Virus record (IMG/VR): IMGVR_UViG_3300037130_000236
Strand: one strand, 5' to 3'
DNA: 64,000 nt
From: a virus
A program made the position numbers and the translations under genes. This document shows positions 34,955 to 54,400 of this stretch, in pieces (positions within the stretch are counted from its first letter, which is position 1; every line of letters begins with the position of its first letter). The notes below the pieces were generated by a model that saw nothing but the letters and a program-made list of their open reading frames with translations, had not been told where the DNA came from and did no database searches.

Positions 34955-34982
34955 AATCAACGTGATATGGTATAATAAGGCG

Positions 34983-35597
34983 ATGGCAAGACCAAAGGGA
35001 ATACCGATGAGTGAGGAAGCCAAAGACCTCATTCGCCAGTTTCAGAAGGGTCGAACACGTTCTCCTGAAACAAGAGCAAGGATGTCTGTTGCAGCAAAGC
35101 TCCGCTCAGAAGAACATTATGCCAACTCCCGTTCGCCAGAAGCTCGTGCAAAAGCCAGCGCAAAGATGAAAGGTCGCAAACCCTGGCACTCACTTCGGCC
35201 TACAACGGAAGCTTTTCGCGAATCTCGGCGCCTCATCAACCTTGGTCGACCCAAATCTATCGAAACTCGTCTCAAAATGGCAGAGGCCAGGCGTGGTGAG
35301 AAGTCCCATCTTTGGAAGGGTGGACTTTCGAAAGAACACTATCGCGAACGCCAAAACGCCATGCAGACTGTGGAATACAGACTGTGGAAGGAATCCGTCT
35401 TCAATCAAGCTGGCAACATCTGTGCGTTGGAAGATGAGACGTGTTCTGGACCTCTTCAGGCCCATCACATTCAATCTTGGACCGAGTTTCCAGAGCTGCG
35501 ATACGAGCTCTCCAATGGTCAGTGCTTGTGCAAAGATCACCATCAAAGGACCGACAACTTCGCAGGCCGAGCCCTCGCTCTAACTAAGGCCGCGTAA
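34983..35597 (+). mobile_element. Free-standing NUMOD3-HNH homing endonuclease
   Basis: Repeated S.ETR.+MS.A..G NUMOD3 motifs; C...AHHI..W..FPELRY..SNGQCLC..HH HNH; lower GC than flanks; TGGTATAAT extended -10 at 34968-34976. Confidence 0.88.
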
Positions 35598-36444: not shown

Positions 36445-38376
36445 ATGGCCTTCAATAACCTGCCTGGGATTATCGTCAACACGGTTGACGGAGGTCTCGT
36501 CTCTGCCGCTCCGCCGCAGGACCACTCTATCCTGATTATCGGCACATGCGACCAGGGCGTGATCAATCAGCCTTACCAGGTCACCAACCGCGCGACGGCG
36601 GCTCTCCAATTCGGTCTGAACGGAAACCTGATCCGTTCGATGGAAGAGTGTGCTGCGAACTCTGACAACATCATTCTGTTTCGTATGGGTGCTCAGCCTC
36701 AAGTCCTGGCGGGCATCGGTGTGGAGACGGGTACCGGTGCGACTGCTGGCTTTTCATTGAGCTTCGGGCAGGCCACCGCGACGTCTGCCACCGATTACAA
36801 GATCTGGTACAAGGCCGGCGTTGTGGCCGTGTACTACCAGGGTGATCTGGAGTATTCGAACGATCCTCTTCAGACCACGGACAACGGTGACATCACCATT
36901 GCCGGAACCATCTCCGGCAACACCGGCCTTCAACTCGGTACAGGTACGAGCGCCACCTTCGCAAACGCGATCACGGTGCAGGCCGCAGCCGCGTTGGTTG
37001 GTGCAACTTCGACTCCTGCCCCGACCTTGACCGCTGCCGTCACCGGCATCGGCCTGACGGGCCGCCAGACCTACCTCGCCTTTCTGGATGCAATCAACCT
37101 TCTGCAAGGGTTCCAGGTTGAGGAAGTTGTGGTTCCCGCCGCGACGTTCGATGCGCCGAATGTGGCTTTCTACTCGGCTGGCAACACAGCGACAGCCACC
37201 AACAACCCGGCAACCAACCCCAATGCTCTTGACTGGCTTTTGATCGCGCGCGATGCCTACGGCGACCAGACCTATCAGTGGGCTTCGGAAGCCAATGCCT
37301 GGGCCAACGGTGCCCAAGTTACCACCTTCCCCGCCGGACTTACCGCTCAGACTGTGGCCGGAACTTCGATTCCGATCACGGCCGGCGCAGTTACGGCGAT
37401 GCCCGGGACGGTTTCGACCGCTTCCGCGCGCCAGGCGCTCGGCTTTGCCGAAGTCAACTGGGGCCATGCAATCGCCAGCTTCTGCGCATCGATCAGTACG
37501 CTGGACAAGACCTGCATCGGTTTCATCGGCACGTCCGTCCCCGCTACCTACAAGCTGGTGGATGTTCGTCGGTGGGTCGGCTTCCTGCCCCTTTACAACG
37601 CCAATGACGACGTGCAAAATCCCGGTGCCGGCCTGCTCGGTATCCCCTACACCGTCGGGACCAACGCCAGCGGCTTGAACGCACTTTGCTTTGACTTCAG
37701 CTCTGGCTATCGCCAACCTGGCTTCTTCCAGACCGAGAACGGACAGTATGACGGCACCGTCATGCAGGACATCAACCAGAACAACATCGACGTCGGTGCG
37801 TACCTGCACGTTGTGGCCGATCAGGCCATCATGTCGAATGGATATGCCACCAACTATGTGAGCAATCTGGCCAACTATGTCGCCGGCTTCTGCTCGGCTC
37901 TCGACGAGAAGACCGCGCTGACCAACCAGAAGGTGCCGCTCAAGCAGCTGCCGGGCCTGATCTACACACCCGGACAGCTCGACTCCCTGACCCAGGCGAA
38001 TATCAATGTGCTCCGCACCAAGGGATCCTACAGCAACCCCGCGCTGCTGCATGACTTCACCTGCGCCACGGACATCAGCGATTACACCGAACTGCTTCGT
38101 GTTCGCATCAAGGGCCTGGTGATTGCGACGATGCTTGCGATCGGCGATCCGTTTGTCGGAGCCAGTTCGCTCGACGGCCTCCAGCTCGTGTCGCTCAAGA
38201 CCGCTCTGGACAATGGCCTGGTGGCCCTGCAGCAACGTGGCTACATCTCGAATCCGCAGGTGACCATCACCACGACCGCTGCCGAATCTCTGATCGGGCA
38301 TGCCAACCTGTTCCTCACCTTCCATCCGGCTGATGAACTCGTTCAGCTCAGCGCCTACGTCGGCCTGAGTTCGTAA
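36445..38376 (+). CDS. Contractile tail sheath protein
   Basis: N-terminal LPG+.....DG; C-terminal LDSL.QA.IN, D.T.A...SDY..L..+RI, L..L...G.I, P..EL..+ sheath motifs. Confidence 0.88.
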   Translation: MAFNNLPGIIVNTVDGGLVSAAPPQDHSILIIGTCDQGVINQPYQVTNRATAALQFGLNGNLIRSMEECAANSDNIILFRMGAQPQVLAGIGVETGTGATAGFSLSFGQATATSATDYKIWYKAGVVAVYYQGDLEYSNDPLQTTDNGDITIAGTISGNTGLQLGTGTSATFANAITVQAAAALVGATSTPAPTLTAAVTGIGLTGRQTYLAFLDAINLLQGFQVEEVVVPAATFDAPNVAFYSAGNTATATNNPATNPNALDWLLIARDAYGDQTYQWASEANAWANGAQVTTFPAGLTAQTVAGTSIPITAGAVTAMPGTVSTASARQALGFAEVNWGHAIASFCASISTLDKTCIGFIGTSVPATYKLVDVRRWVGFLPLYNANDDVQNPGAGLLGIPYTVGTNASGLNALCFDFSSGYRQPGFFQTENGQYDGTVMQDINQNNIDVGAYLHVVADQAIMSNGYATNYVSNLANYVAGFCSALDEKTALTNQKVPLKQLPGLIYTPGQLDSLTQANINVLRTKGSYSNPALLHDFTCATDISDYTELLRVRIKGLVIATMLAIGDPFVGASSLDGLQLVSLKTALDNGLVALQQRGYISNPQVTITTTAAESLIGHANLFLTFHPADELVQLSAYVGLSS

Positions 38377-38494: not shown

Positions 38495-39190
38495 ATGTCT
38501 TCTCTTCCCGGCGGCGTCCTTGCAAGCGAGATCAGCCGCTCCTACAACTCGTTTGCTGGTGCTGACATTACTGCTGTGATTGGTCAGTTCCAGTTTGCAG
38601 AGCTCCAGGCTATCTCCTACTCCGTGACTCGTGAAAAGGCACCGATCTACACGATGGGTTCTTGTGATCCTCGTGCATACTCGCGCAACAAGCGCGGCAT
38701 CGCCGGCTCGCTCGTCTGGATCAACTTCGATCGCCATGCGCTGCTCAACCTCTTCCAAATGGCTCTCGGCACCTTTGTGGCCGATGCCGATGAGATCCGG
38801 CCCCAGTTCTCGAATGTGGCCAACGGGACAGCTGTCTTCCAGTCCTCGGTCGTTCGGGACACAGGTCCCTCGATCTCTTCGACCATCAGTCAGCTCGATC
38901 AGATGACCATGACCAGCAGCGCCTCCAACAGCGAACTGGCGACGCCTTGGTATTCCGACCAGATCCTGCCCTTCGACGTGACGCTGAGCGGCGCCAATGA
39001 GTACGGCGCGATGTGCGCGGCCAAGATCTTCGGCGTTGAGATCCTCAACGAGGGAATGGGCATCTCCATCGACGATGCCGTGACCGAGATGCAGGCGACT
39101 TTCGTTGCCCGCGTGGTCGAGCCCATGTCGGCCGTTCCGAGTCCGTTCCAGTCTGCGAGTGGCATCGGCGGGACATCCTTCACACTGTAA
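38495..39190 (+). CDS. Tail tube protein
   Basis: Follows the sheath; SF.GADI, LQAISYSVTREKAPIY.MG, RGIAGSL, I.GVEILNEG.G.SIDD. Confidence 0.85.
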   Translation: MSSLPGGVLASEISRSYNSFAGADITAVIGQFQFAELQAISYSVTREKAPIYTMGSCDPRAYSRNKRGIAGSLVWINFDRHALLNLFQMALGTFVADADEIRPQFSNVANGTAVFQSSVVRDTGPSISSTISQLDQMTMTSSASNSELATPWYSDQILPFDVTLSGANEYGAMCAAKIFGVEILNEGMGISIDDAVTEMQATFVARVVEPMSAVPSPFQSASGIGGTSFTL

Positions 39191-39277: not shown

Positions 39278-40288
39278 ATGAGCATCCCTCCCATCAGTTA
39301 CGTCTCCTCCGACCAAAGCATGGTAACCAGCGGTGTCGAGTCCTTCTCGTCACAGGCCACTCCCATTGTGTCTGGAGGTCTCCAGACCGACGCCAGCCCG
39401 GCGCCTGCGGTGCCGAACGCCTCGGAAGCATCGACCAGCTATACCGATTCCACCCAGCCAGGAATGGTTCTGGGCAGCGACGGCAACTACTATCCGGCAT
39501 CGAGTGTTTCTGCCGGCGGCGGAATCACCGGCCCTCCCATTTCGTCCTTCAACCCGATCAGCGCCGCCCTTCAATCCTCGTCAGTGCCAGCGAACAATCC
39601 CGCGCAACAGCACAACCTGAATCCAGGCAACGGACTGTATCACGAGGCATCCTACACGGGATCGAACCTGAAGGTGATGATCGAGGTGGCCAATGACGGC
39701 ACCAACACGACCAATCCTACTGGCCTGTCGACAACCACCAACTCCAACAGTGTCTCCCAGCAGGCGACTTCCAAGCCTGCGCGCCAGGCAAAGCAGCTTG
39801 TGGAGCTGACCACCATTACGGTATCCGTCCATCGTGTGAAGTCTCCCGCGGTTGCATGTGGTTACATCAATCCAAAAGGCTGGGCGCGCGGCCGGCGCAC
39901 AATCGCCGGCACCTTGGTGATGACCAAGTTCACTACGGACGTCCTTTACGCCTTCCTCAATTCCGGCGCGTTCACATCCGACCTCTCCAAAGACACAACC
40001 TACATGAAGGTGGATCAGCTTCCTCCCTTCAACCTCACTCTTCTGTTCGCCGATGAGTATGGGAACACCAGCTCTCAGCGGTTGCTGGGTGTCGAGCTTG
40101 TGACGTCGGGTGACGTCTACTCCATCCAGGACATGTTGAGCGAACAGACAATCTCCTACGTTGCCGCGGACTTCACGCCCTTGATGCCTCTCAACAAGAG
40201 CAGCCTTTACGGAGCCGCCGCCGGGAGTACCGTGACGGCGCCGCAGAGAACCGTGGGCACGGTCCTGAACCAACAGGCAGCTCAGTAA
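39278..40288 (+). CDS. Tail-tube-fold paralogue (tube initiator-like)
   Basis: TITVSVHR.KSP...G...P.G..RG.RTIAGTLV parallels the tube protein; N-terminal Ser/Pro-rich linker. Confidence 0.7.
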   Translation: MSIPPISYVSSDQSMVTSGVESFSSQATPIVSGGLQTDASPAPAVPNASEASTSYTDSTQPGMVLGSDGNYYPASSVSAGGGITGPPISSFNPISAALQSSSVPANNPAQQHNLNPGNGLYHEASYTGSNLKVMIEVANDGTNTTNPTGLSTTTNSNSVSQQATSKPARQAKQLVELTTITVSVHRVKSPAVACGYINPKGWARGRRTIAGTLVMTKFTTDVLYAFLNSGAFTSDLSKDTTYMKVDQLPPFNLTLLFADEYGNTSSQRLLGVELVTSGDVYSIQDMLSEQTISYVAADFTPLMPLNKSSLYGAAAGSTVTAPQRTVGTVLNQQAAQ

Positions 40289-40297
40289 GGAATCGAA

Positions 40298-41119
40298 GTG
40301 ACGATTATCGCCGGCAGTCCGATGGCACCAACGGCAAGTTCCAATGCCGTTCAGCAGCCCCCAGCTCCGGGATCGGCCACTCCGGCTGCGGCGAATGCCC
40401 AGAACACTCCCGGCGGTATCGTCATCCCCTCGCTTGCTCCCAGCTACGAGTGGATCTATCCCAACTCGACGGATGGCAAGTATTTCACTGCCACACAGGC
40501 CCAGATGTACATCGGCAACCTGTTCATCGACGAGTTGGTGAACCTGCAGTTTGCCTATCAGGGCAACCGAATTCCCATGTTTGGGTATTGTTCACGAAGC
40601 GCGGATGCGTTTGGGACCGGCAGGCTTTTGGTACAAGGGCAGATCGCGATTAACTTCGTGACTGAAGGCTACCTGTACACGGTCCTCAAAGAGTTCTCGA
40701 AGATCTACACCCAGCCGGTTCAGGCATCAGCAACAGGACAGGCGGGCGCGCAGATCGCTTCTCTGGTGCAGCAGAGTCAGCAGATCACTAACGCCATGCA
40801 AGGCGCCTTGTCGCCGTCTGCCACCGCAAGCTACCAGGCGCAGTTGAACATCATCAGCCAGCAGATCCAGTCTCTGGCCGCCCAGGGCGGCCCGGACGCG
40901 ATCAACGCCGCCAAGCAATCCGCCACTGTTCAGAGCGACACTCCAAACGCGATTGTGCTGAACATCCCGTTCGACATTCACTGCGAACTGACAGGCGCGG
41001 GCCGCACGGTGGAGAGGATTCTCCGCAACTGTCTGCTGATCTCGAACGAGCAGGTTTACGACCAGTCCGGACAGACCCTGCTGGACTGTTATGGCTTCGT
41101 TGCCCGTTCCGCAAACTAA
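40298..41119 (+). CDS. Second tail-tube-fold paralogue
   Basis: YF...QAQMYIG, LQF.YQ.N.IPMFGY.S...D....G..LVQG.+.INF. Confidence 0.65.
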   Translation: MTIIAGSPMAPTASSNAVQQPPAPGSATPAAANAQNTPGGIVIPSLAPSYEWIYPNSTDGKYFTATQAQMYIGNLFIDELVNLQFAYQGNRIPMFGYCSRSADAFGTGRLLVQGQIAINFVTEGYLYTVLKEFSKIYTQPVQASATGQAGAQIASLVQQSQQITNAMQGALSPSATASYQAQLNIISQQIQSLAAQGGPDAINAAKQSATVQSDTPNAIVLNIPFDIHCELTGAGRTVERILRNCLLISNEQVYDQSGQTLLDCYGFVARSAN

Positions 41120-41145
41120 CGACCAACCCTTAGGAGCATCGACTC

Positions 41146-41574
41146 ATGTCCGATCAGATCAGAGAACAACCCCAAATCACCCCTTTCGAGTTCCTCCATA
41201 CATTCCCGGAGGCTCCGAGCCTGGAGCAGATCGAACAATGGAAGCAGCAGGCGCCAGGCGCGCGCCTCCGTATCTGGCACTCGACGGATGGGAAGCGCGT
41301 TTATGTGCTGCGGGCCATCGGTGGCCAGGAACTGGGGCAACTGCAGGCGAGCCTGCCCCCAAACATCCCGCCAGAGAAGTTGCAGGCCGAGGTCCAGATC
41401 CTCATGGCGATCCGCTGTTGCGTGTGGACCAGCTCGACCATCGATCACAAGCTGTCCGATCTCGCACTGAAGGGAGCAGGCGCCGGCCTTCCCCAGACGC
41501 TGCAAGAGATCATCTATCAGCTGTCTGACTACATGGACCCGATGGACATCAACCGCTTCAGCGCCGATCTGTAA
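41146..41574 (+). CDS. Tail assembly chaperone (putative)
   Basis: Position after the tube genes; IE.WK.. and R.CVW..., AG.P.TL...I..LS patterns. Confidence 0.6.
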   Translation: MSDQIREQPQITPFEFLHTFPEAPSLEQIEQWKQQAPGARLRIWHSTDGKRVYVLRAIGGQELGQLQASLPPNIPPEKLQAEVQILMAIRCCVWTSSTIDHKLSDLALKGAGAGLPQTLQEIIYQLSDYMDPMDINRFSADL

Positions 41575-41582
41575 GGAGCGCC

Positions 41583-42158
41583 ATGCAGGTATTCTTTGCC
41601 CGTTGGCCAAGTGGCCGTAAAGTGAAGTGGCGTTCACTCACCTGGGCAGAGTTCAAGAAGTTTGATCGACAACTCGATTATGACTGCCCGGCTTCCGTCT
41701 ACTGCGACGTATACCGGGCAGTTGTGCTTGATGGCCCTCCTCTGGATGGCGATCCTGTTTACCAGGCGCCGGCCGGACTCGTCGAATGGATTGCACGAGC
41801 ATTGCTGGACTCGAATCCGTTCAACGGAGAATACAAGGACGTCAAGCGCGCGCTCGAAATGAAGCGCATCGAACTGAAGTCAAGCTGGTTGAACTCCGCC
41901 AAGTCGATCATCGCCGGGATCTTCCGTTACACCTTCGAGGAGATCGAGCAGTGGGATGCGGAGATGTTCTTCGAGCGTCTCGCCTCCGCCGAGTTCGTCT
42001 CTGGGCGCAAGCTCGAGCCGGGAGACCCGGATAAGCTGGATGCCCAGCATCCTGGGAAGAAGCCTGGTCACCCTGAAGGCCCTCCGAAGCCTGCCAAGCG
42101 CGAGCTGAGTCCGGCACAACAGAAGGTTGTCAATCGCGTCGTCAACTCCCGTAAGTAA
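41583..42158 (+). CDS. Second tail assembly chaperone (putative)
   Basis: Own RBS aaggag; +.WR.LTW.EF, F.YT.EEIE.W. Confidence 0.55.
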   Translation: MQVFFARWPSGRKVKWRSLTWAEFKKFDRQLDYDCPASVYCDVYRAVVLDGPPLDGDPVYQAPAGLVEWIARALLDSNPFNGEYKDVKRALEMKRIELKSSWLNSAKSIIAGIFRYTFEEIEQWDAEMFFERLASAEFVSGRKLEPGDPDKLDAQHPGKKPGHPEGPPKPAKRELSPAQQKVVNRVVNSRK

Positions 42159-42167
42159 GGGGATGCT

Positions 42168-45100
42168 GTGCCCTTGGATTCCTCCCAACCCGTGATCGAA
42201 ACCACAGCCGGGCGTCCTCGTTTCGCTTCCGACAAATCCTTTCAACTGGAAAGTGAAGAGGCCTACAATCCCTGGGTCCGAGCGATCGGAGTCGGGGTTG
42301 TGGGCACGGCTTTGTATGCCACGCATCGGACGATGCTGGCGACGGTGCCGGAGTATGCCCCGACGCTTCAGAACTGGGCGCAGAAGTTCGAGAATCAGAC
42401 TCCCTTCCACATTGGCCGGACCTTCGCGTTTACCGAACGGCTCTCTTCCTACACAACTCCCGAAGAGTTGAAGTTCACACGGTCGATGCTGACCAACCTG
42501 GACGGGTCGCTCAACGCCGTCGGCGAGACATTCCAACGTCAGTTCAAAGATGCAGGCGTCGATTTCGATGTCCTCCAGCACGTCACCGAAGACAACCCCT
42601 TGCTGTTCAAGGGCCGTCGGCGCGCTGGCTCTGCCTACATGAAACTGGTGGGCCGGGACAGGATCGACTTCGAGACCCGCTTCACTCCATCGGAAGGCCG
42701 TCTCGCTGGCACTGCTTCCCGTCTTGGCCAGAACCTGCACCAGCCGCCCCTCCATTGGTCCACGAATCCCAACTTCCGCGAGCGGATCTGGGAGAACTTC
42801 CAGACCTACAGATCTTCGCAGCGCATCACCAACGCGTCTCCCTGGAGAGAGGCCGCCAAGGATGCTTCTGATCCGAAGTTCCGGCCGTTCCACAGCCGGG
42901 CTCATGTCGAAGGCAATCTGAGTGAGGAGGCTGCGCAGACAGCTCGCAACGTCTGGTCGCGCTTTCAGGTTGAATCTCTCGAAGCAGTAGAGCGCCCTCA
43001 ACGGCTCTTTGCCGAAGCAGGTTTCGGTCTCAAGGCAGGCACCTGGAACAAGACCTTCCATCTTCCTTTCGCCGGCGAAGGTGGCATCGTCAACAAGATG
43101 ATCACCAGGCGTGTGCTGCCGATCGCGCTGGCTGCGACCGCCGCAGGCTGGCTGGATTACAAGCTTGGACATCCCAGCGACAAGGTCATCGATCTCGGCC
43201 TCAAGGCCAACGTCCTCCGGGCGGATCTGACAGACATGCTTCCCGGTGGCCGCAAGGTCACCGAATTCTACGAGAATACTGTCCCCGGGCCACAGTACGG
43301 TCCGCTGGCGCTCCCCGCGGCCGGTGCTTTTTCCGGCGGCCTGCTGCACTACTCGCGCGTCGTGCGCGGCCAGTTCGCCACCGAAGATCTCCGCAAAGCA
43401 GGCTCACGCCTTCTGCCGGATGTGAAGGCCCTGCGGACATGGGCCGGCACCAGCGGTAAGAAGCTGGCATCCATCGAAGGCCTGGCTCAGATCTGGAGAG
43501 GTCTGGGCACACCCGGCAGAGGAGCGGCAATTGGTCTGGTGGCAGCGTTGCCCTTCCTGCCTGGAATGCTTGGTTCTCGCAAGACTGGCAACGAGTTGCG
43601 CGATGTCTATTCCGGACTGGACGAGGTTCCAATCCGAAGTGGACGCTGGTGGGAGTTGGGATCAACTCCCTTTGAAGGCGCGCGCATCAAGGCATGGCGG
43701 CCTCACTGGAGCGTCCTGCACAAGAGCCGCGCGGAAGACATCTCGCTGTTCGGATCGGAAGAAGAGAAGTGGAAGCACAACCCGATACTGCATCCACTGC
43801 GCTGGCTGAAGGACCCCTACTACCTCGAAAAACTGCACTACGAGGACCGCCCGTACCCCGTGGCGTCGCCGGCGTTTACCAATTTGCCGCTCATCGGCCC
43901 GTTGCTTGGCGCCACGATCGGCAAGCTGGTCAAGCCGACGATCAGAATGCACGAAGAGGATTGGGATGGCAAGGAGTACACCCTCTACTCGACACGCATC
44001 GAACCCAAAGGCCCGGAGGCTCTCCCGCCGCCACTGCCGAAGGACGAATTCTCGATCGGCAACGCACTCAAGAAGGAAGCGACGATCTTTGCCGAGTACA
44101 CCGGACTCTACGGCTTCATTGCCAAGAGTGGCTATCAGGGACTGTTCCCCAACACCAACAGTCTGGGCAAGGAGGTCGACTATCAAGGATCTCGTCAGAT
44201 CGACAACTTCTCTCGTCGTTACTACGAGAAGGAGCTGGGCGCCGGCATTGGTCCGTCCCTCTCAGGCACAGAGCACTTCGGCTATACAGAACCCTTCCGC
44301 CGCTTTGTCCAGCGGGAGAGCTTCTCTCCCCAGGCCAACGAGATCCCCAATACAGCCGCCAGTTGGCTGCCAGGAGATGACTACTACACCAACTTCCATG
44401 TCGGCGATCCCTTCATCAAGGTCGACCAGGGATTTGCCCGTCTGCCCGGCGCCGGCTACGAAGCCATCCATCCCGAGCTGAAGGGAGTCGATCCAGAAGA
44501 CTACCCCGACATACACAAGATGGCCATCCTGGCCGATGTGGCTCCATACTCACGTGAGTACCACAACGTCAGGCAGCGTGTAGCCCAGCAAGCCAAGGGC
44601 AATACCGAACTGGAGATCGAATACGAAAAGATCATGAACCGGGTCAAACAGACCCGTGAATCGATCATCCGGATGAACGACAGGCACTTCACCGCCCCTG
44701 TCGATGAGATCTCCGGCACCGTGGACGACGTTTCTCCCGGCGGAGTCATCCTCAAGGAGTTTCCCGGCCGGCGCTTCCAGTTCTCCTCCGTGGGCATGAG
44801 TGCGGCAGACCTGTCGGCGCGGATCCTCGGCGAGAACAACAACATGACCCGTAGCGAGGTGGCCCTCGAAGTGGATCGCCGCCGCGGCGCCATGCAGCAA
44901 TATCTGGCCGATCATTTGGCCGAAGGCACCTCGATCCGAGCTGTTGTTCCGAAAGGATCTGCGAGCAATGCAGAGCAGATCCGGGCTGTCATCCTGGCCA
45001 ATGGAGAGAACGTCAATCGGGAGCTGATCGACCAGGGGTTTGGTCAGTATCGTGAAGATCTCGGCGGGGCCGAAGCTCGTTCCATGCACGGCAAACTGGG

Positions 45101-46181
45101 GCGCGCCATCGGCGGCGTGGCTGAGGGTCTGGCCTTCCAGGGAGATTCCAGCGCATTGAATCCAATGCGGTATGTGCCATCGCCGGCCCACACCAAGTTC
45201 TGGCAGGAACGCACCCCGCTGGCCCAGTACATCAACAACGAGGTTGCAGGCACCAGGATGCGGCGTTGGGAGCGCCCGATCCACGACTTCCTCATGCCCT
45301 ATGCCCGCGGTCTGGTCGAGCGCGTGACCGGCCAAACTGTGCTGCCTGGCGACGTTCAGAAACGCCGGGACCTCAACACTCTGGCCGACGTAATGACCTA
45401 CCTGCGCGATCTGGATGGACGTGCGTCAGGTTCCTATACTAATAAGGGGCAGAGGACATCGATTGGCGCCAACCTGTTTGCTGCGCCGACCTTTGTCGCT
45501 TCCACCCTTCCCGCTCGTGAATCCCACTACTTCCGTGAGTTTCTTGCCGAGACTGATCCGAGCAAGAGAACCCAGATCCTGAAGGTTGCATCCCCAGAGA
45601 TGCAACGCGCTTTGTCTGCCCAATGGGCAGTGCAGAAGTCCCGCATTGCCGAGGTGGAAGGCAAGGATCACGAGGAGATCGGCGAGGGCGGCCGGCTGTA
45701 CGACGAAGCCGACGTTGAAGAGTTCGAGAAGGCTGACACCGGCCTCGACTACGGCAACTGGCTGCGTTCGAAAGAGATCGCGGACTTCTTCTCCCGGACT
45801 GGATTCGCTCTCCCTGAGCACGGCTTTGAAGCGTTTGAAGAGGCTTTGGATTACCAGGATGTTGAGCTGAAGATAATCCAGCAGGAGGGGTATGACGCAC
45901 ACGACTTCAACATCTTCGACGACAGGGCTTCCCTCCTGTGGCGGAAGCCTTACATCGATGGAGCTGTTCGTGAATTGACCAGCGGCGATGATCGTTCTCC
46001 CGACCAGCTTCGGCGTGCGGTGGAACAGATCATGCAGGCAGCCAATGACAAGAAGGCGGACGTTAGAACCTCCGTTCATGCAGGACATGTGAACCACACG
46101 AATGTTCGCGTGAGCGCCGATATAGATCAGACAGAAGACTTGCTGAGAGATATTCGCCGGAATCCAGAGGATTACCAGTGA
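42168..46181 (+). CDS. 1337-aa virion protein in the tape-measure position, with a degenerate thermonuclease (SNase) OB-fold
   Basis: Follows the chaperones; hydrophobic GxxxG segments; G.V..V.....I....RFQF..V...L..G..+....+RAV+...GENVNRELI.QG.G near 44700-45050. Confidence 0.65.
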   Translation: MPLDSSQPVIETTAGRPRFASDKSFQLESEEAYNPWVRAIGVGVVGTALYATHRTMLATVPEYAPTLQNWAQKFENQTPFHIGRTFAFTERLSSYTTPEELKFTRSMLTNLDGSLNAVGETFQRQFKDAGVDFDVLQHVTEDNPLLFKGRRRAGSAYMKLVGRDRIDFETRFTPSEGRLAGTASRLGQNLHQPPLHWSTNPNFRERIWENFQTYRSSQRITNASPWREAAKDASDPKFRPFHSRAHVEGNLSEEAAQTARNVWSRFQVESLEAVERPQRLFAEAGFGLKAGTWNKTFHLPFAGEGGIVNKMITRRVLPIALAATAAGWLDYKLGHPSDKVIDLGLKANVLRADLTDMLPGGRKVTEFYENTVPGPQYGPLALPAAGAFSGGLLHYSRVVRGQFATEDLRKAGSRLLPDVKALRTWAGTSGKKLASIEGLAQIWRGLGTPGRGAAIGLVAALPFLPGMLGSRKTGNELRDVYSGLDEVPIRSGRWWELGSTPFEGARIKAWRPHWSVLHKSRAEDISLFGSEEEKWKHNPILHPLRWLKDPYYLEKLHYEDRPYPVASPAFTNLPLIGPLLGATIGKLVKPTIRMHEEDWDGKEYTLYSTRIEPKGPEALPPPLPKDEFSIGNALKKEATIFAEYTGLYGFIAKSGYQGLFPNTNSLGKEVDYQGSRQIDNFSRRYYEKELGAGIGPSLSGTEHFGYTEPFRRFVQRESFSPQANEIPNTAASWLPGDDYYTNFHVGDPFIKVDQGFARLPGAGYEAIHPELKGVDPEDYPDIHKMAILADVAPYSREYHNVRQRVAQQAKGNTELEIEYEKIMNRVKQTRESIIRMNDRHFTAPVDEISGTVDDVSPGGVILKEFPGRRFQFSSVGMSAADLSARILGENNNMTRSEVALEVDRRRGAMQQYLADHLAEGTSIRAVVPKGSASNAEQIRAVILANGENVNRELIDQGFGQYREDLGGAEARSMHGKLGRAIGGVAEGLAFQGDSSALNPMRYVPSPAHTKFWQERTPLAQYINNEVAGTRMRRWERPIHDFLMPYARGLVERVTGQTVLPGDVQKRRDLNTLADVMTYLRDLDGRASGSYTNKGQRTSIGANLFAAPTFVASTLPARESHYFREFLAETDPSKRTQILKVASPEMQRALSAQWAVQKSRIAEVEGKDHEEIGEGGRLYDEADVEEFEKADTGLDYGNWLRSKEIADFFSRTGFALPEHGFEAFEEALDYQDVELKIIQQEGYDAHDFNIFDDRASLLWRKPYIDGAVRELTSGDDRSPDQLRRAVEQIMQAANDKKADVRTSVHAGHVNHTNVRVSADIDQTEDLLRDIRRNPEDYQ

Positions 46182-46215
46182 TGCAAGTAAACCGTTCCTA
46201 TGTGGTCGAATGAGG

Positions 46216-46227
46216 CTTTGGTAGATC
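46216..46227 (+). promoter_or_regulatory. Motif B copy (CTTTGGTAGATC) upstream of the RNAP-like gene
   Basis: Matches consensus; intergenic. Confidence 0.6.
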
Positions 46228-46358
46228 CCTGCCAACAGGGAGACTCGTAACAGCCTCATCGGCCCCTGCCGGGCGGATCAAAACCTGGACTTCCACCCAA
46301 GCACACTCGTCCTCGTGCTCCTCGCCTTGATCGGAAGCATCCGCCCAACCCCCTTCCT

Positions 46359-49300
46359 GTGACCCTTATGGACCCTCGTGACTTCTTCAAGAACCTGACC
46401 GGCGTTTACGGCTGGGCTGCAGAACGGCCTGGTCTGATGTTCGGCGCCGGCGCGGCCGCATTGGCTGCGCCCCTGTTCATGAAGAACGACGAACGGGGCT
46501 ACTTCAAGACATCCACCATGACGACGCCGGCGATTGTCGCCGCGGCCATGGTGGCGCCCCGCCTTATCCCTACGGCGGTCAGCGAAGGCAAGCGGCTTAT
46601 CGATGTCGTCAAGCAGGTTCCCACGGACTACGGGTTCCGCGATGGAGTTTACCAGGCCGCCACCGGAGCAGTGAACATCGCCGCGCTGCGCAGCGCCTAT
46701 GAAGAAGGCCGCATCTCGATCAATGAATACCTCGCCGGACAGAGTCGCTTCTATTCCGGCCTTCCCATTGAGGAGATCACCAGCAACCAGGTCGAGCGTG
46801 AGTTCTCCGCCTTGACCTCACATTTCAATCGCCTCTACGAAGACCCGACCAAGCATCGCCTCCTGGAGAACGCGCTCTTTCACGCCCAACTGAAGCAGTC
46901 GGGCGCTGCCGACAAGCTGGGCTGGCAGGGCCTGACGGCCGTGGCGCCAACGATGACGGCGAACGAAATGAGCGACATCATCGACGCCAACTCCAAGGAC
47001 ATCGATTGGATCAGGGAGATGAACTTCCGGCTCCGTGAGGCATCCGGAGCCAAGGTTGCCGGCGAAGGTGCTGTCGTTCCCCAGCTCAAAGATCTGACGT
47101 CCGCCAATGCCGAGTTCATGACATCTGAAAGCTATGCCGGTCGTGGGCGCGCTTTGCTTGAAGAGCAACATGCTGCCCTGGCTCAAGAGATCGATGCCCT
47201 GCTGGGAGACAAGGCCGCAGTCAAGCAGTACGGCTACCGTGCCGAGAACATCGAGGTCATCACTCTGCCGGCCGGACGGAACCGACCGATCAACGAGATC
47301 GTTGGACTGCGTATCGACGGCGACCTGACCATCCCTGTCATCGATGGCAACGGTGGCATCAGACTGGGAAGCTCCTTCGAGAACTCAGGCGTCTCCCGCT
47401 TCTTCATGCAGCACGGCGGCGATGTCAGCGCCGATGTTTACGGCGTGCGCGGCCTCCGCTATGGGAAAGACTTCGTGCGCGGCGAGCTGAGCCGGGCTCA
47501 GTTCGTTGTCGGCCGTGATCCTCTCAACGGCAACCCTTTCCAGGCCGAAGATGCCGGTGTCGCCCAGGCAACCCGCCGCCAGCAGCAGTTCTACAGCAAC
47601 CAAGGTGTCTTTGCCGATATGCCTGGGTCTTTCCCCGTGGACGGCGAGGACCGCGGTGTTTGGAGTCGGATGCGCCCGGAGCGCAAGGTTGCAGAGATCA
47701 CCCACCAGGTTGATTCCGGCGGCAAGATACGCACCACGGGCGGCACGAAGATCGACACCCTGGAACGGGAGGAAACCCGGCTCATCGAGCCCATGGGTGT
47801 TCACAACCGTGAGAAGGAAAGCCTGCGCATCAAGTCGATGAACAAGTCGATTTGGGCGGAAGTGGCCGAAGGCCATGCCGGTTTCTCCGCGACGGATTAC
47901 ACCGACCTTCCGGAGTTTGGCGTTCGTTCCCTCCAGATCACTCCCAGCCAACGCGCGCTGTTCGGCGACCTGCCTGAGTGGGAGCAGGTTGCAGGCGCTG
48001 GTTTCGATTCCAGGCTGGCACTCGAAGATTCAGCGCGGGCCCTTTCGCTCGATATGGCCCTCAGCAAGATCGGCGCGAAGCAGCGGGCGGTCGGCTATAT
48101 CGCCAAGGACGCCGGCGTCAACGAGATGATTGCGACAGACATGTGGGATAAGCTCCTGCCTTTCCTGTCCAACCGGAAGAACTACGAAGCAATGCGCAAT
48201 GTCGGCTACATCGGCGAGGGCGCGCGCATCATGAAGAAGAACGTGGGCGCCGAGGCTGTGCGCCATGTGAACTACGTCGTTCACGAGAACATGCTGTCCG
48301 AGGACCTCCTCAAGGGAGGGACGTTTGGGCGCGATCAGGTTCTCGGAATGAAGTACGGCACCTCCATGTTTGCCCAGGGCGACAGCAACCGCATCATCAA
48401 CCACTCGGTCAACGAGGCGGACGGAACGATCCTCCTCCAGGTTGAAGAGCGTCTGGTCGTCCAGGGGATGAAGACCCACAACCTGGGCAAGCAGACCGTT
48501 AGTCGCGCGCTCGAAGACGTCGAGATGGAGCGGGTGATCCGCGGCTTCAACAACTACTTCAGGGTCTCAGGACAGGGCGGCGCTGTGGCCGATGAAGTCG
48601 ACAGCGTGGTTCTGGAACAGTTCAACAGCGCCAAGGCGAACAATCCGCTGCAGGTTCTCAACGACTCCCTGGGCGATACGTTCCGCCGGCTTGACGGTAT
48701 CTACGGCGCTGGCAACACGCCTGCCTTTCTGACCGAAGCAAAGTTCTCCGGCCGCAGCCATTTGGATCGCCTGGCCGAGCTGGGCTATTCCTACGAGAAT
48801 GGTCGCCTGATCACGCACACCGGCAATCTGCGCAACCTTCAAGGGTCGGCCGCCGATTACACCCAGGCCGCCGATTACATCCGCGACCTGATGGACGAGG
48901 TCGGGGCGCGCATCAAGAGCAAGCAGATCGCTGGCGATCGGTTCATGGAAAGCTATATCGACTGGTCGTTTAAGCATGAGGACGGAACCTACCTCGAATA
49001 CCTGATGCAGCGGGCGCTGCCTGAGTCCATGAGCGTGTCGGATCACATGGCACTCAACCACGCTTCCCGTGTCGGTATCACCCGCGATGCTCTCCAGCAG
49101 ATGTCTCTGGCCGGGGAACATGAAACGGCGCGCGAGATCCTGAGCCGACTCGAAACGGATGGCTCTACAGGCATGACCTGGGATTTCATGCAACACACCG
49201 ATCCCAGTGTGCGCGACTTCTCGAAGCCGTTTGGGGACGCCAGCATCTCGATCGATGAAGCAGTGGGCGACAGCCTGATCGACAGGCTGGGCACTGCCGA

Positions 49301-51398
49301 AGGCCGCGTCACGAAAGCGACCGGGCCTGACGGCAAAGTCGGGATCAGACCGACGATCTTCGACCCAGCTCACGACCTGGCGCAGAGGAACTACTCAATC
49401 AAAGCGAGTGTCGCCGGCAAGGACTACTTCATTCCGGTCCTTGGACGCGAGGCATACGGCGGCAAGGCCAATGCTCACGACCTGATGGGCTACTCGGCGA
49501 ATAAGTGGGAGAACGAGCTGCGCAACGTGTTGCAGACCGCCAACGATGTGAACGAGGGCTTCGGCACCAAGATTCCCTTCGAGGACGTACTCGCCAACTA
49601 TGTTCAGAAGGTCCGGGAATCCTACGGCGTCGGCAAGGAAGGTGTTTGGAGAGCTCCGACGATTGATCCCTTGGGATTCGAGGGCCGGGCGACTGCGCGT
49701 GCGTCAACACTGCGCTACGCCGACGGCTCTGTCAATCCCTTCGAGATTGGTGTCGGCGAAGAGTATCTGGACCTGATGTCCAAGGAGCATGCCGAGATCC
49801 TGCGCGGCGGCGGCCGCGTGCAGGCCGTATCTGTCCGGCATCCCATCAATGCCGTGGTCATGGCCGATGTGAGATACGATCCGAATCTCAACGGCTCATG
49901 GCAGGTCGGCGCCGATCCGGTGATGCAGCGCATGATGCGCATGGACGCCGACGGCGACCGGCTGTCGTTCCACATGGCAAACACCCAGGCCGTGAAGTGG
50001 GCAGAGGACGTTGCCGATCCGGCTGCTCTCCAAGGTGAGCGCGCGGCAGAGTATGCCCGCTGGCAAAGGTTCTCAGAACAGATCAACAATCCGGAAAGCC
50101 TGCAAGGCAGGCTCGGAGCCTTCCGCCGCGTCTTTGAAGGCGACGAATTGAACCCTCGTGAATACGTGAAGGGTTCGATGACGGACGTGTTCTCCAACGT
50201 CAGGAAGTTCGCGGGAAGGGATCTCCGCAAAGCGATTCAGGCCCGTACCGCCGCGGCCGACGTGGGCATGCTGTCGAATACCTTCGACCAGCTCGAAACC
50301 TCGATGGCTCACAACGATCTTTTCCGCGATCCGTTCGAGAAGCTGATCACCCATGAGTTCTCTTACGACATCGTGCGCGAAGCATCGATCGCCGCGGCAA
50401 AGCTGAAGGGCGGCGGAGCGTACCAGGATCTGACCACCCTGATGGCATGGAACAACTCTCTTCGCTCGGCGCTCAATGACCGTAGCGAAAAGGGCATGAA
50501 CCGGTTCATCACCGCCATGACGGAGGGCGCACAGAACTTCGGCAAAGAGATCGCGGTCAACGATGCCCAGAAGGCATTCTTCAAGATTGCCGACGAGACC
50601 GCAGAGATCAATCCGTACCTTGAGTTCGCGCAGCAACGGCGCGACCTGTTGGAGAAGCTGTGGCGAGGCCACGACTCCACGGTCAGCGAGATCCAGCAGA
50701 TCATGACCGTGACTGGCGAGAATGCTGCGAAGTACGCGAGGCGCGACATCGTCACCCTGTTCAACAATCAGGTGCCTGCGGTACAGGCATTTGCCCACCG
50801 GGGCGCCAGTGACTACTCGGCTGCCACTCTGGGTGCGGAAAACGCCCGTACGGCCGCCGGGAAGTTCGCTCAGAAGACAGGCCGGGCCGCCGAGGGCGTC
50901 TTCAACCAGGCAGCTCGCTCTGTCGAAGAGGTCGTGCAGGCGGCGCGCGGGACCGGCGCAATGAAGGCACTCGGCATTGGAGCGGCCGTCGCAGTTGGAT
51001 CTGGCATCCTGTTCGGCTCCTTGCGCAGTCCTCGAAAGGGACAGGCATTGGCTCCCTCCGGGAACCGTTTCCGCCCAGAAGAGAAGATCGGCGTCGATGG
51101 TCATGTTCCAGGAGAACCTGAGACTGGGGTTATGGCGCCTGCCAACCCTCCTCGTAGAATCAGGCCCGCCCAGGGCGGTGTACGAACCGCAGTCGTCGCG
51201 CCGATCGGTCGCACGACGGAGCTTGAAGTCCACATGCGGGCGGATGATCGCGGAAGGGCTGCAGAAGCCTCGAAGATAGCGACCCGTCTGGCAGCTCCAG
51301 CAGGCAACTCCCACGTCTCGATCACCTACCGAGACACTACGCGCCTTGACAGCTTGCGGACCAAAGAACGGATCCGCGAGGCAATGGACGAGAGATAA
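46359..51398 (+). CDS. Single-chain two-barrel (DPBB) DNA-dependent RNA polymerase, putative virion RNAP / tape-associated
   Basis: Beta'-like order EGRATAR (about aa 1108), PFEIGVGEEY, VQAVSVRHP (R1160), ADPVMQRMMRMDADGDRLSFH (D1196-D1200, nt 49944-49958); weaker beta-like YIGEG (617-621), GMKTHNLGK (703-711), EVDSVVL. Confidence 0.8.
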   Translation: MTLMDPRDFFKNLTGVYGWAAERPGLMFGAGAAALAAPLFMKNDERGYFKTSTMTTPAIVAAAMVAPRLIPTAVSEGKRLIDVVKQVPTDYGFRDGVYQAATGAVNIAALRSAYEEGRISINEYLAGQSRFYSGLPIEEITSNQVEREFSALTSHFNRLYEDPTKHRLLENALFHAQLKQSGAADKLGWQGLTAVAPTMTANEMSDIIDANSKDIDWIREMNFRLREASGAKVAGEGAVVPQLKDLTSANAEFMTSESYAGRGRALLEEQHAALAQEIDALLGDKAAVKQYGYRAENIEVITLPAGRNRPINEIVGLRIDGDLTIPVIDGNGGIRLGSSFENSGVSRFFMQHGGDVSADVYGVRGLRYGKDFVRGELSRAQFVVGRDPLNGNPFQAEDAGVAQATRRQQQFYSNQGVFADMPGSFPVDGEDRGVWSRMRPERKVAEITHQVDSGGKIRTTGGTKIDTLEREETRLIEPMGVHNREKESLRIKSMNKSIWAEVAEGHAGFSATDYTDLPEFGVRSLQITPSQRALFGDLPEWEQVAGAGFDSRLALEDSARALSLDMALSKIGAKQRAVGYIAKDAGVNEMIATDMWDKLLPFLSNRKNYEAMRNVGYIGEGARIMKKNVGAEAVRHVNYVVHENMLSEDLLKGGTFGRDQVLGMKYGTSMFAQGDSNRIINHSVNEADGTILLQVEERLVVQGMKTHNLGKQTVSRALEDVEMERVIRGFNNYFRVSGQGGAVADEVDSVVLEQFNSAKANNPLQVLNDSLGDTFRRLDGIYGAGNTPAFLTEAKFSGRSHLDRLAELGYSYENGRLITHTGNLRNLQGSAADYTQAADYIRDLMDEVGARIKSKQIAGDRFMESYIDWSFKHEDGTYLEYLMQRALPESMSVSDHMALNHASRVGITRDALQQMSLAGEHETAREILSRLETDGSTGMTWDFMQHTDPSVRDFSKPFGDASISIDEAVGDSLIDRLGTAEGRVTKATGPDGKVGIRPTIFDPAHDLAQRNYSIKASVAGKDYFIPVLGREAYGGKANAHDLMGYSANKWENELRNVLQTANDVNEGFGTKIPFEDVLANYVQKVRESYGVGKEGVWRAPTIDPLGFEGRATARASTLRYADGSVNPFEIGVGEEYLDLMSKEHAEILRGGGRVQAVSVRHPINAVVMADVRYDPNLNGSWQVGADPVMQRMMRMDADGDRLSFHMANTQAVKWAEDVADPAALQGERAAEYARWQRFSEQINNPESLQGRLGAFRRVFEGDELNPREYVKGSMTDVFSNVRKFAGRDLRKAIQARTAAADVGMLSNTFDQLETSMAHNDLFRDPFEKLITHEFSYDIVREASIAAAKLKGGGAYQDLTTLMAWNNSLRSALNDRSEKGMNRFITAMTEGAQNFGKEIAVNDAQKAFFKIADETAEINPYLEFAQQRRDLLEKLWRGHDSTVSEIQQIMTVTGENAAKYARRDIVTLFNNQVPAVQAFAHRGASDYSAATLGAENARTAAGKFAQKTGRAAEGVFNQAARSVEEVVQAARGTGAMKALGIGAAVAVGSGILFGSLRSPRKGQALAPSGNRFRPEEKIGVDGHVPGEPETGVMAPANPPRRIRPAQGGVRTAVVAPIGRTTELEVHMRADDRGRAAEASKIATRLAAPAGNSHVSITYRDTTRLDSLRTKERIREAMDER

Positions 51399-51400
51399 CC

Positions 51401-54400
51401 ATGAGCGTCATCACCACCGAAAAGGATTACAGCACGAACAACCCACTCGATGCGGGCTACTTCCGCGTCGGGTTTGTCACCCTGCAGATCCCACCACAGG
51501 ACATTGTGACCTCGCGTGTTGTGAACAACGAGAAGATCACGCCTCTCCGCGGCATGAACGAGATGTTCCAGAAGACGGGGCAAGCTCGCTGGGATGTGAC
51601 CGTGAGTTGGACGGCACTGTTGAATGACGCCGATCAGGTCACCAGGTATCAGCAGTGGGAAGACCTTCGCAATATGGTCGCCATCTTCAAGGCTGCTCCT
51701 TTCGTGGAGGTGGAGTCTCCGCACCTGCGCCAGATGCTGGCTGCTCATGATCCGGAGTTCTCCACCAGACGCCTCTCGATGGGCCTCCGCCAGCTTCGCG
51801 TCGACAACCATCCAGATGTCATCGACGCACTCAAGGTCACCCTGACGATGACCTACTTCAACTGCCTGCCCTATACCCAGGACTTCGGATACCAAGGTGA
51901 TTCCGGACAGAGTGTAAGTGCTTACCAGTCACAGAAGTTCAAGAAGTACATTTCCCAGTGGCGCCAGATCAACATGGAGCGGGCATTCCGCTACCCAGGA
52001 GACCCGATCTGCCCCTTGTGGCTGGCCCAGAATCCTGGCGAACTGGCTCTCAAGTGGAGGACCTACCTTCCAATACAATCTGGGCAAGTACCGGACTACG
52101 CCGGCCAGCTCAACGCACCGGCGACCATCGGCGGAACGGTTGTTCCATCCACGGTGACGCCGAAGGCTCCGAAGGGGAAGGTTGCGCTTCCGCCTGCAAT
52201 CGCTCAGCTCATTCAGCAGATCGCACCGCAGTTTGGTCTTGACCCTGCAATAATGCAAGGAATCTGCTGGTACGAAAGCAAAGGCAATCCCAACGCCAAG
52301 AGTCCAAACTCGACTGCCACAGGTCTCTTTCAACTGCTCAATGGAACTGCAAAGGCCATGGGAGTCACAAACTCCTATGACCCGACCCAGAATACAACCG
52401 GGGCCTGCAAACTCATGTCCCAGCTGTATCGTCAGTTCGGATCGTACGAGCTTGCCATAGCTGCTTACAATGCAGGATCTGCTTACGTCAAGTGCTATCT
52501 GAACGGAACCAGTCAGACCTTGAAAAGTGGTGTAGTTATCAATCCAGGCAAGCAGATGACAGGCGGGATTCCTCCAGCAGGTGTTCCTGCAGGCGAGAAC
52601 GTGCCAAAGTACATCTCGACGGTCATGAGTATCGCTCAGTCCTCGTTTGGGTACAACGGCACCGCCACGTCCACAACCCCAACCGTAGCGCCCGGCCCTG
52701 CGCCGGCAACGAATGCAACGACACCGGCCAGCTCAGGGTCAAACCCGACAACTTCGACCAGTTCGAGCACCGAAGCTGCCTTTGAAGCACAGGTGAACAA
52801 CCTTGTGGCTCAAGGCTGGAGTGTCGATCACCGGGCCGATCCCGGTGGCGTCGGCGTTCTCTTCCTGTACAAGGAGAACGAACTTCGGGTTGCTCCTCAA
52901 GACTCCAATTCAGGAGGCGTGCAACCGGGCCTCTGGCCGGAAGGCATCTCGGTTCTCTTCGTCAACAACCTCGCGCAGATCCCGCTGGCTGGCTTCCAGT
53001 ATCCGACCTACCAGCACGTCGGGCCCTGCAGCTCTCTTGTGCAGGTGTCATTCGGTTCCCAGGGGACGCGCGACAATCCGAACACGGACGAGCCGATCCA
53101 CAACGGTCTGATGACCCTGACCTCGATGGCTCATATGCTGGAGCAGCAGTACCAGCGCCTGCGCACGCAATTCCGTTCGATCGCATCGGTTCACAGGATG
53201 CACGCGGTCTATGTCGAGAACCAGGTTCTGAATATGCTCGGTATCTTCGGGCTGATGCTCGATCAGGTGACCACCGAGACAGTGCCTGATTCCTCGGATA
53301 TGGCCATGGCCCAACTCACGGCCTGCCAGTACGAGAACAAGTTCGAAGAACTCACCTCCTACAAAGTCAACGCGATCGACGGCGTCTACATGACTGCCCT
53401 GCAACAGACGGTGTTGCAGGGAGACACGCTTGCCCAGGCGGCAACGGCGGCGTCGCCTGATGAGAGGGCACTGATGGGTGCGGCCTTCACCTATCGCCAG
53501 CACATGGCCAGCTCCGACGAGAACGACATGAGCGCCCGGCTTCTCAATGCAGCCGAAAACCCCTCTGACTCGTCGCCCTTCGGATTCATGAACGGAGCCC
53601 AGTCATTCTTTGTCAGCGAAACAGATGCGGATGCGCTGACGAACGAGTTTATGGAAAAGTCTTCCAGTTACCCGGTCGCCGCGGCGCGCGTGAAGCAGCT
53701 TCAGCAGTCGGGCAATACAACGCAGTGGACGATGGCCGATTACCTGATGTTCAAGTCCTGCGCTTATGACGCAGCGGGAACTGGCGCCATCACATCCCTC
53801 GTATCGAGCATCGATCAGGGTCTGGCGGCCGACACCGATCTGAGCCGGCAGAAGATGGTCAGCGATGTGTATTCGCGGCTCTTTCCCTACTTCGCGGAGA
53901 ACGATCCGAGCCTGCGCAACGCCCTGAACCAGATCATGCAGAGTCCAACGCTCGGCGCGAGCATCAAGAACTCCGTCTCTGCAAGCGACCCCGCCCTCTC
54001 GAATGCCGATCATGGGGCCTACCGCGACATGGGCCTGAACAGTCAGGTCCTCGATGGCGAAGACTTCAACCCCGGGATGTACTTCACCAGCGACAAGACG
54101 ACCTATCTGGCCAAGACGAGGACAGCCCTCGGGAACATCACGGCACAGATTGCCTCAGGTTCAAGTCAACTGAACAGCGACAGCAACGGATACCAGGTTC
54201 CTGCGGGAACGATTCCTCTGTCCACGACGACCTCGATTCCCGGCAACATGGACTCGATCATGAAGATGATCAATGTTCCTGGTTACAGCATGACCGAGGC
54301 ATTCCCGACCTTCAAGCTGTTCTTTATGGAGGACGCCAACAGTGGCATCTATTACGCATTCGACAACTTCTACAGCTACAGTGCGGTGATCGACATCGAG

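Follow-up and report, generated by a model that had tools for sequence, protein, structure and literature searches.

Introduction

The gene considered here, at positions 42168-46181 of a 64,000-nucleotide stretch of viral DNA (IMG/VR record IMGVR_UViG_3300037130_000236; the whole stretch is called the window below), encodes a 1337-amino-acid (aa) protein, hereafter the target, whose closest described relatives are the gp145-type proteins of Bacillus phage 0305phi8-36 and similar large contractile-tailed phages. The gene order common to these phages is sheath, tube, tube paralogue, gp142, two chaperonins, gp145, gp146 and gp147, where gp146 is annotated as a 'hypothetical tape measure' and gp147 is a hub with wall-degrading domains. 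Hardies et al. (PMC2147016) gave the measuring role to orf146 on the basis of tail length and described the chaperonins as 'one gene removed' from it, which makes the target an additional gene, placed after the chaperonins and before the tape-measure slot. No function of gp145-type proteins has been published in the literature searched. To our knowledge, little is known about the start of infection by giant contractile-tailed phages in general.

Working analogies come from other phage types. The ejection proteins of podoviruses (gp14, gp15 and gp16 of T7, and the gp50 virion RNA polymerase of N4) are stored in the head of these short-tailed phages, leave it unfolded and rebuild a conduit across the envelope; one of them carries an SLT lysin, and transcription helps genome entry. 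No homology to these proteins was detected, and the genes studied here form part of a contractile-tail module behind tail chaperonins. Closer in layout is gp96 of Thermus phage P23-45, a virion RNA polymerase (RNAP) fused to a tape measure, which is a precedent for a polymerase in the tape-measure slot (PMC10770324). As in the window, a two-barrel RNAP occupies the slot after the tail chaperones, where it is thought to be active at the DNA entry pore, and gp96 holds hydrophobic segments and an enzymatic domain alongside the RNAP in one giant protein. P23-45 is a siphovirus with a single 5002-aa protein, whereas the window encodes a contractile tail with the functions spread over separate giant genes. 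Alignment of the target and polymerase families by hhalign with P23-45 gp96, 0305phi8-36 gp146 and ME3 gp036 gave probabilities below 2%, a result that does not exclude similarity.

Our preferred reading, to which we assign a probability of about 0.5, is that the target is a chaperone-loaded protein that is ejected from the tail, enters the membrane and there binds nucleic acid next to the polymerase. The evidence lies in the conservation of the family, a degenerate nuclease fold within it, the nuclease modules gained by its relatives and the gene that follows it.

The target belongs to the gp145 family

The target ORF (open reading frame) starts with GTG and is preceded by AAGGGG 6 nt before the start codon. 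A tblastn search of 50,697 phage records with the target matched only 0305phi8-36-like large myoviruses, namely Bacillus phages 0305phi8-36, Edson, vB_BceM_WH1 and KLEB27-3, Moorella phage MTATph1 and Acinetobacter phage ME3, with E-values of 2e-21 to 1e-33 against five isolate phages. More than 300 homologues were found, at identities of 37-96%. The homology to gp145 is established, with four collinear high-scoring segment pairs covering target aa 434-1332. According to the annotation of its GenBank record, gp145 was identified as a virion protein by mass spectrometry, and the homologues in WH1 and KLEB27-3 carry the database label 'structural protein'. On sequence grounds, the target is thus a member of a large, uncharacterised family of virion proteins. 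The slot is conserved as well: in all the isolates named, including ME3 with its gp035, the gene comes after split chaperonins of the G/GT type and before the slot gene, and a hub/lysin gene lies next in line. The Bacillus and Moorella homologues differ from the target in being 1900-2000 aa long, with large insertions. The features of the target are as follows.

42168-46181, plus strand: target gene, 1337 aa, gp145-type virion structural protein family (ORF; homology to 0305phi8-36 gp145)
43521-43577, plus strand: hydrophobic segment 1, aa 452-470, rich in Gly and Pro, candidate for membrane insertion (19 aa, Kyte-Doolittle value 1.59)
43644-43679, plus strand: motif RWWELGSTPFEG, aa 493-504, favoured site of intein insertion among distant homologues (invariant R493, W495, G504)
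43812-43859, plus strand: aromatic block DPYYLEKLHYEDRPYP, aa 549-564 (invariant P550, R561, P562, Y563; second intein site at ~aa 565-567)
43875-43931, plus strand: hydrophobic segment 2, aa 570-588 (hydropathy 1.24; invariant P574, G577, G585)
44697-45101, plus strand: predicted SNase-like OB-fold domain, aa 844-978, degenerate and without the catalytic residues (profile, AlphaFold2, Foldseek, VIA)
45816-46157, plus strand: C-terminal module, aa 1217-1330, highly conserved (dense near-invariant columns)

The aromatic blocks and the hydrophobic Gly-rich segments are among the best conserved parts of the family, and G452, G456, P465 and M467 of segment 1 are invariant in the family alignment. 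An earlier first-pass annotation of the window, made from the letters alone, had pointed to this ORF, to both aromatic blocks and to hydrophobic Gly-rich segments in a protein lacking long repeats. All of these features are real, and no internal repeats were detected by BLAST self-comparison. The family core keeps almost the same length, about 1290-1340 aa, even in phages that have diverged widely. When the target, the RNAP and the hub were compared within the same loci, identities were 46, 23 and 33% in one comparison and 51, 28 and 34% in another, and as judged by these values the target surpasses the other two giant tail proteins in conservation. Pfam, PHROGs and NCBIfam returned nothing for the whole target, for its sub-regions or for 28 family members searched singly, and the ESM Atlas held no usable match.

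Two observations concern the integrity of the gene elsewhere. ORFs of 200-236 aa that hold only the C-terminal module of 110 aa, at ~60% identity, occur on three Acidobacteriaceae contigs (L043:5917-6591, L044:5938-6645 and L046:5974-6579); the one on L044 adjoins IS21-type genes (Mu-transposase-like and IstB), and these module-only ORFs beside IS21 genes gave no functional clue. In KLEB27-3, the gp145-type protein (L032:11136-18289) is annotated as gp031 and gp033 with the small gene gp032 between them, and the gene may have been split by an inserted element.

A nuclease fold without its catalytic residues

The first-pass annotation had reported a segment resembling staphylococcal nuclease (SNase) at 44700-45050 with its catalytic motifs replaced. 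The family profile and the column counts given here were built on 71 homologues. Against the PDB, it matched only thermonucleases (E 0.07-0.19), in the same alignment as that of the first-pass annotation; a single-sequence search with the segment returned noise, so that only the profile pointed to thermonuclease. An AlphaFold2 model of aa 820-1010 reached a predicted local distance difference test score (pLDDT) of 83, with values above 90 over the core (model residues about 25-150). The top 50 PDB matches of the domain model in Foldseek were all staphylococcal nuclease or SND1 (best E 7e-4), and VIA-align gave a Z of 9.2 with 116 of 136 residues aligned at a root-mean-square deviation of 3.5 Å, spanning SNase residues 1-127. 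In BFVD, the best matches were three unnamed or uncharacterised viral proteins of ~1000 aa, taken to be family members, followed by viral thermonuclease-like proteins; one accession among the top matches is presumably a 0305phi8-36 entry. The likeness to SNase/thermonuclease (PF00565) and to the SN domains of SND1 consists of the oligonucleotide/oligosaccharide-binding (OB) barrel of five strands plus three helices, with Z of 8.5-9.2 over 105-121 residues. Unlike PF00565 members, the target domain has no Pfam match (the domain by itself and aa 434-1052 were both searched, with E allowed up to 10), shares only ~15% identity and is missing D21, D40, E43, R35 and R87.

Where SNase has D21, R35, D40, E43 and R87, the target has G, Q/F, G, A and E/Q, respectively, and across the 71 homologues these columns are Gly, Ala or variable. 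Conserved instead are the invariant G850, S873, V941 and N950 and the near-invariant E864, R868 and D881. Both parts of the earlier claim are borne out: the predicted structure confirms aa 844-978 as an SNase-type OB-fold from which the Ca2+-binding and catalytic residues are absent family-wide, and we regard this dead fold as established. Its span in the window, 44697-45101, agrees with the interval reported earlier. In lacking the catalytic set, it resembles most SN domains of SND1. Three further carriers of the domain are gp145, the homologue of the Moorella phage and the metagenomic locus L027. In gp145 the sequences are IDSNT and IRLAGV, against the canonical IDGDT and RL..VD.PE; the Bacillus segments are thus closer to canonical SNase, which suggests descent from a real nuclease followed by erosion. 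The target domain also aligns weakly to the genuine SNase inserts of two homologues, P0113 and P0114. The Pfam SNase match of these two proteins was considered as a homologue of the target segment and rejected, as it belongs to a separate 119-aa insertion at ~aa 1184.

Nuclease modules and inteins in the family

Domain architectures were counted in 111 full-length homologues, some of which fall in two classes. The plain architecture of the target is found in 57 of the 111. An N-terminal extension of 330-390 aa is carried by 35 (P0030, P0103 and 33 others; for example at L013:8819-10018 and L014:8831-10000). Alignment of 28 of these extensions revealed intact DEDDh motifs in which none of the five catalytic residues is lost; a strongly hydrophobic segment comes after the domain. 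The invariant D-x-E and the near-invariant W-N-x3-D and H-x-A-x2-D motifs, together with a match to RNase T (E 0.007), identify the extension as a predicted DEDDh (RNase T/DnaQ-like) exonuclease-like domain, which Pfam does not pick up. The possibility that the extension of the 1630-1690-aa homologues is a fused chaperonin was rejected, since it has no similarity to the upstream genes.

An in-frame insert of 115-120 aa at aa 614-617 (window positions 44007-44018) is present in 17/111 homologues (P0010, P0073, P0057 and 14 others). In the five homologues scanned, this insert is a Vsr-like MTES_1575/DUF559 endonuclease domain, which has a further likeness to the nuclease at the C-terminus of the anti-phage proteins ProA and Hhe. 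The SNase insertion of P0113 and P0114 (2/111) has DGDS, TPE and DKYGR intact. These modular nuclease additions are established, and the acquisition of such enzymes more than once suggests that the protein encounters nucleic acid inside the host.

P0182, P0189, P0191 and P0194 are interrupted by inteins that contain LAGLIDADG or Hint domains. Three neighbouring insertion points, at 497-500, fall within RWWxxG/(S,T)PFEG, and a single one immediately precedes SPAF (the second intein of P0189); these two motifs correspond to the two aromatic blocks of the target. The alignments indicate that the same conserved core has been invaded several times independently. Inteins also occur in tape measures and portals, and the intein sites therefore mark conservation and are no proof of catalysis. 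Longer and more distant homologues (2350-3080 aa) were examined as possible fusions of target and polymerase; no fusion was found, and inteins and clade-specific insertions explain their length.

The neighbouring polymerase gene

The gene that follows the target had been taken for an RNAP gene in the first-pass annotation, which expected the two genes to stay together in related phages. The features are:

46359-51398, plus strand: tape-measure-slot gene, 1679 aa, predicted single-chain two-barrel RNA polymerase (AlphaFold2, Foldseek, VIA, motifs)
49836-49958, plus strand: RxP...DxDxD metal-binding motif, aa 1160-1200 of the polymerase (invariant P and three Asp, near-invariant R, 41 homologues)

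A HMMER search retrieved 56 relatives of the polymerase protein. In 41 of them P1162, D1196, D1198 and D1200 are invariant and R1160, K705 and K711 near-invariant, and the resulting motifs, RxP(~36)DxDxD and K..KG, are signatures of two double-psi beta-barrels. The AlphaFold2 model of aa 441-1560 had a pLDDT of 85 and a predicted template modelling score (pTM) of 0.84, and its top 50 Foldseek matches were RNAP large subunits plus one PolD. With VIA-align, the first half of the protein matched beta/Rpb2 (Z ~11, 280-330 residues) and the second half beta'/Rpb1 (Z 10.9, 372-417 residues). Pfam, PHROGs and PDB sequence searches with the family profile were blank for this gene, and the ESM Atlas gave an unnamed cluster only. 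The model and motifs together confirm the predicted identity of the product as a two-barrel RNA polymerase, and with it the polymerase neighbour of the target is established. The protein has hydrophobic segments at the N-terminus (aa 24-74) and at the C-terminus (aa 1537-1555).

The expected linkage was found. An RNAP relative lies downstream of the target homologue in 20 of 24 IMG/VR loci by BLAST and in two more by motif, while the remaining two loci end too early to show it. The order in these loci is target, 0-2 small genes, RNAP-type gene and SLT hub. As the family is nearly always placed just before a tail-module RNAP gene, the target is probably delivered into the cell with the DNA. No terminator-like site was found on the plus strand between the target and polymerase genes. 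The spacer between them in the window (46182-46358, 177 nt) is without a clear Shine-Dalgarno sequence before the polymerase gene, and the corresponding gap in the relative L007 is ~715 nt.

Among the other relatives, the slot genes of Edson, KLEB27-3, ME3 and locus L027 contain the RxP...DxDxD signature, which reads RYP...D(H/Y)DGD in Edson (L030:17322-24869) and in KLEB27-3 gp034 (L032:18313-25617). DxDxD is missing from the slot genes of 0305phi8-36 (gp146) and of the Moorella phage. The 0305phi8-36 gp146 (L004:7624-15237) shares only its last ~160 aa with the slot genes of Edson and KLEB27-3, and it seems that the 0305phi8-36 slot gene lost the polymerase or never had it; a separate YonO-like polymerase is encoded elsewhere in that phage (Iyer et al., PMC7824862).

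Additional genes separate the two giant genes in some relatives. A ClpX-like AAA+ ATPase of 354-423 aa (AAA_2 plus ClpB_D2-small) lies between them in four lineages (L009:13735-15003, L015:13750-14811, L023:14209-15363 and L026:13958-15043); none was found in the window or in its 178-kb relative. This ATPase may act as an unfoldase in loading the giant proteins, which would fit a globular cargo that needs unfolding for loading. In another lineage, the same gap holds a GDSL/SGNH lipase-like protein of ~470 aa (L017:16580-17992 and L018:14423-15829), and a 1005-aa ORF without matches is also found there (L017:13555-16569).

Gene order around the target

The remaining structural genes of the window are:

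15660: terminase-like gene
19620: portal
27015: capsid
36445-38376: tail sheath
38495-39190: tube
39278-40288: tube paralogue
41146-41574, plus strand: gp143-like putative tail chaperonin (BLASTP to 0305phi8-36 gp143, E 1e-4)
41583-42158, plus strand: gp144-like putative tail chaperonin (BLASTP to 0305phi8-36 gp144, E 1e-3)
51401-56947, plus strand: giant baseplate hub/lysin protein, 1848 aa, with an SLT domain (PF01464, aa 270-370, E 3.6e-20; similar to gp147)

By BLASTP, the genes upstream of the target match gp140-gp144 of 0305phi8-36. The two chaperones that had been placed directly before the target are supported by the weak matches to gp143 and gp144. The ORFs 41091-41528 and 41146-41574 overlap in different frames; the gp143 match is confined to the latter, which is therefore the likely gene. 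No classical tape-measure family was found in the target, its neighbour, the window or the nearest 178-kb relative (Pfam and PHROGs, and NCBIfam for the target), as had been anticipated. An ORF resembling HNH-type homing endonucleases lies upstream of the sheath gene, within the structural module (34929-35597).

A model for the target and competing explanations

The combined observations suggest a model in which the target would be produced along with the products of the tail genes and be attended by the two G/GT-like chaperonins whose genes directly precede its own. Target and polymerase protein may then be kept in or at the tail lumen, not fully folded, until contraction of the sheath expels the target. 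The hydrophobic segments at aa 452-470 and aa 570-588 and the RWW/RPYP core would help to build or line an entry conduit in the envelope, while the degenerate SNase OB-fold would hold nucleic acid uncut, so that the incoming DNA end (or nascent RNA) is kept beside the injected polymerase. In relatives, the same scaffold may deliver active nuclease modules. We infer, on this model, a virion location for the target itself, its ejection, membrane insertion and nucleic-acid binding.

Several points weigh against this model. At least one lineage can dispense with the SNase-like domain, which is absent from ME3 gp035; since ME3 retains a family member next to a gene with the RNAP motif, cooperation with the polymerase does not require the domain. 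The added nucleases may be accretions of a selfish or unrelated kind. The hydropathy of the two hydrophobic segments is no more than moderate (1.2-1.6), and both are rich in Gly and Pro. Finally, ~85% of the target is without an assigned fold, with Pfam, PHROGs, NCBIfam, the PDB and the ESM Atlas all blank for it.

A different role in the tail would account for part of the same evidence. The target could be a real length-determining tape measure, or measure jointly with the next gene, the polymerase being attached cargo. It directly follows the chaperonin pair, the classical position of a tape measure, most of its neighbour is a globular polymerase that lacks a long helical rod, neither the window nor the 178-kb relative yielded another tape-measure family, and both giants reach greater lengths in the Bacillus clade, whose tails are long (gp145 1930 aa, gp146 2537 aa). 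We nevertheless consider this explanation unlikely: the target contains at least one compact globular domain, the SNase-like one, and no repeats, it is strongly conserved where tape measures are fast-evolving, and its core length hardly varies. The assignment of measuring to orf146 by tail length (Hardies et al., PMC2147016) also speaks against it. The first-pass annotation had placed the protein in the stead of a tape measure; its position after the chaperonins stands, but the wording is imprecise, as the 0305phi8-36 literature gives the measuring role to the next gene, and the gp145-type protein is an extra one. An equally improbable explanation, in our judgement, is that the target is a tail part that is never ejected, such as a tube initiator, an inner-baseplate component or a hub-proximal plug, with the nuclease-like domain a mere scaffold. 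The isolates' annotation says only 'virion structural protein', the gene lies within the tail/baseplate block, and high conservation fits many structural contacts. The repeated gain of intact DEDDh, Vsr-like and SNase modules is, however, hard to explain in a protein that does not meet nucleic acid; the conserved hydrophobic segments also count against such a part, and the place between chaperonins and slot gene matches that of lumen proteins.

Narrower biochemical roles appear less probable again. OB-folds commonly bind single strands, and the target might be a dedicated accessory subunit of the virion RNAP, acting in promoter recognition, melting or processivity, with the dead OB-fold reading single-stranded DNA. 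The RNAP-type gene adjoins it in nearly all loci, and the two genes are co-oriented with no terminator-like site between them. Yet a factor specific to the polymerase is hard to reconcile with the persistence of the family in 0305phi8-36 and the Moorella phage, where the slot genes are without DxDxD; in ME3 the neighbouring gene contains the RNAP motif but the SNase-like domain is absent; a ClpX-like ATPase, a GDSL lipase and the 1005-aa ORF are tolerated between the two genes; and no search revealed similarity to sigma or other initiation factors. We rate this role as improbable, and the promoter-recognition factor put forward in the first-pass annotation is accordingly not upheld. Least probable of all is that the SNase-like domain is still a nuclease, or the RWW/RPYP core a cryptic enzyme, with a non-canonical site built from residues conserved in this family (E864, R868, D881, N948 and N950). 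Several polar residues in and around the domain are indeed near-invariant, and the RWW and RPYP motifs attract inteins, which frequently settle in the catalytic motifs of enzymes. Every canonical position for Ca2+ binding or catalysis is nevertheless lost and variable, lineages that apparently need nuclease activity add separate intact nuclease domains, and inteins are also present in tape measures and portals.

The ejected, membrane-inserting and nucleic-acid-binding protein remains our preferred reading, and a broader and distinctly more speculative picture may be drawn around it. The 0305phi8-36-like phages would have no classical tape measure, and their tail lumen could instead hold an 'ejectosome' of giant globular proteins loaded unfolded, with ClpX-like help in some lineages. 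The gp145-type protein might be its conserved membrane-inserting platform, docking DNA to the injected RNAP via the dead SNase fold and serving in many lineages as a vehicle for interchangeable DEDDh, Vsr-like and SNase warheads against host or competitor nucleic acids. New here are the DEDDh, Vsr-like and intact SNase modules, the intein invasion, the ClpX-like and GDSL genes between the giants, and the occurrence of gp145-type genes beside a slot gene without DxDxD.

The family has hundreds of members on phage contigs of the 200-kb class, almost always beside a predicted virion RNAP. If these proteins are ejected, the idea from P23-45 that slot proteins couple transcription to DNA entry would widen from one siphovirus to a broad lineage of myoviruses, and a modular carrier for injected nucleases would have been identified; if the target is only a structural tail part, the result is an ordinary improvement of annotation. 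The culturable relatives ME3, KLEB27-3, Edson and 0305phi8-36 offer handles in the two intein-marked motifs, the dispensable dead nuclease domain and the unfoldase and lipase genes.

Host and lineage

The genome contigs that carry the gene are metagenome-assembled genomes (MAGs) of Acidobacteriaceae and Terracidiphilus, and the nearest IMG/VR record is labelled a provirus. The source phage is best explained as a temperate phage or provirus of Acidobacteriaceae, one of the large phages with contractile tails that make up the 0305phi8-36-like lineage. Close to one end of a 3.26-Mb MAG contig from Acidobacteriaceae (L034, CAWENG010000004.1, 3,230,500-3,246,508) there is a copy of the locus with 91% identity, which suggests an integrated jumbo prophage. 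Both giant genes of this copy are broken into several frames, in a manner resembling long-read sequencing errors.

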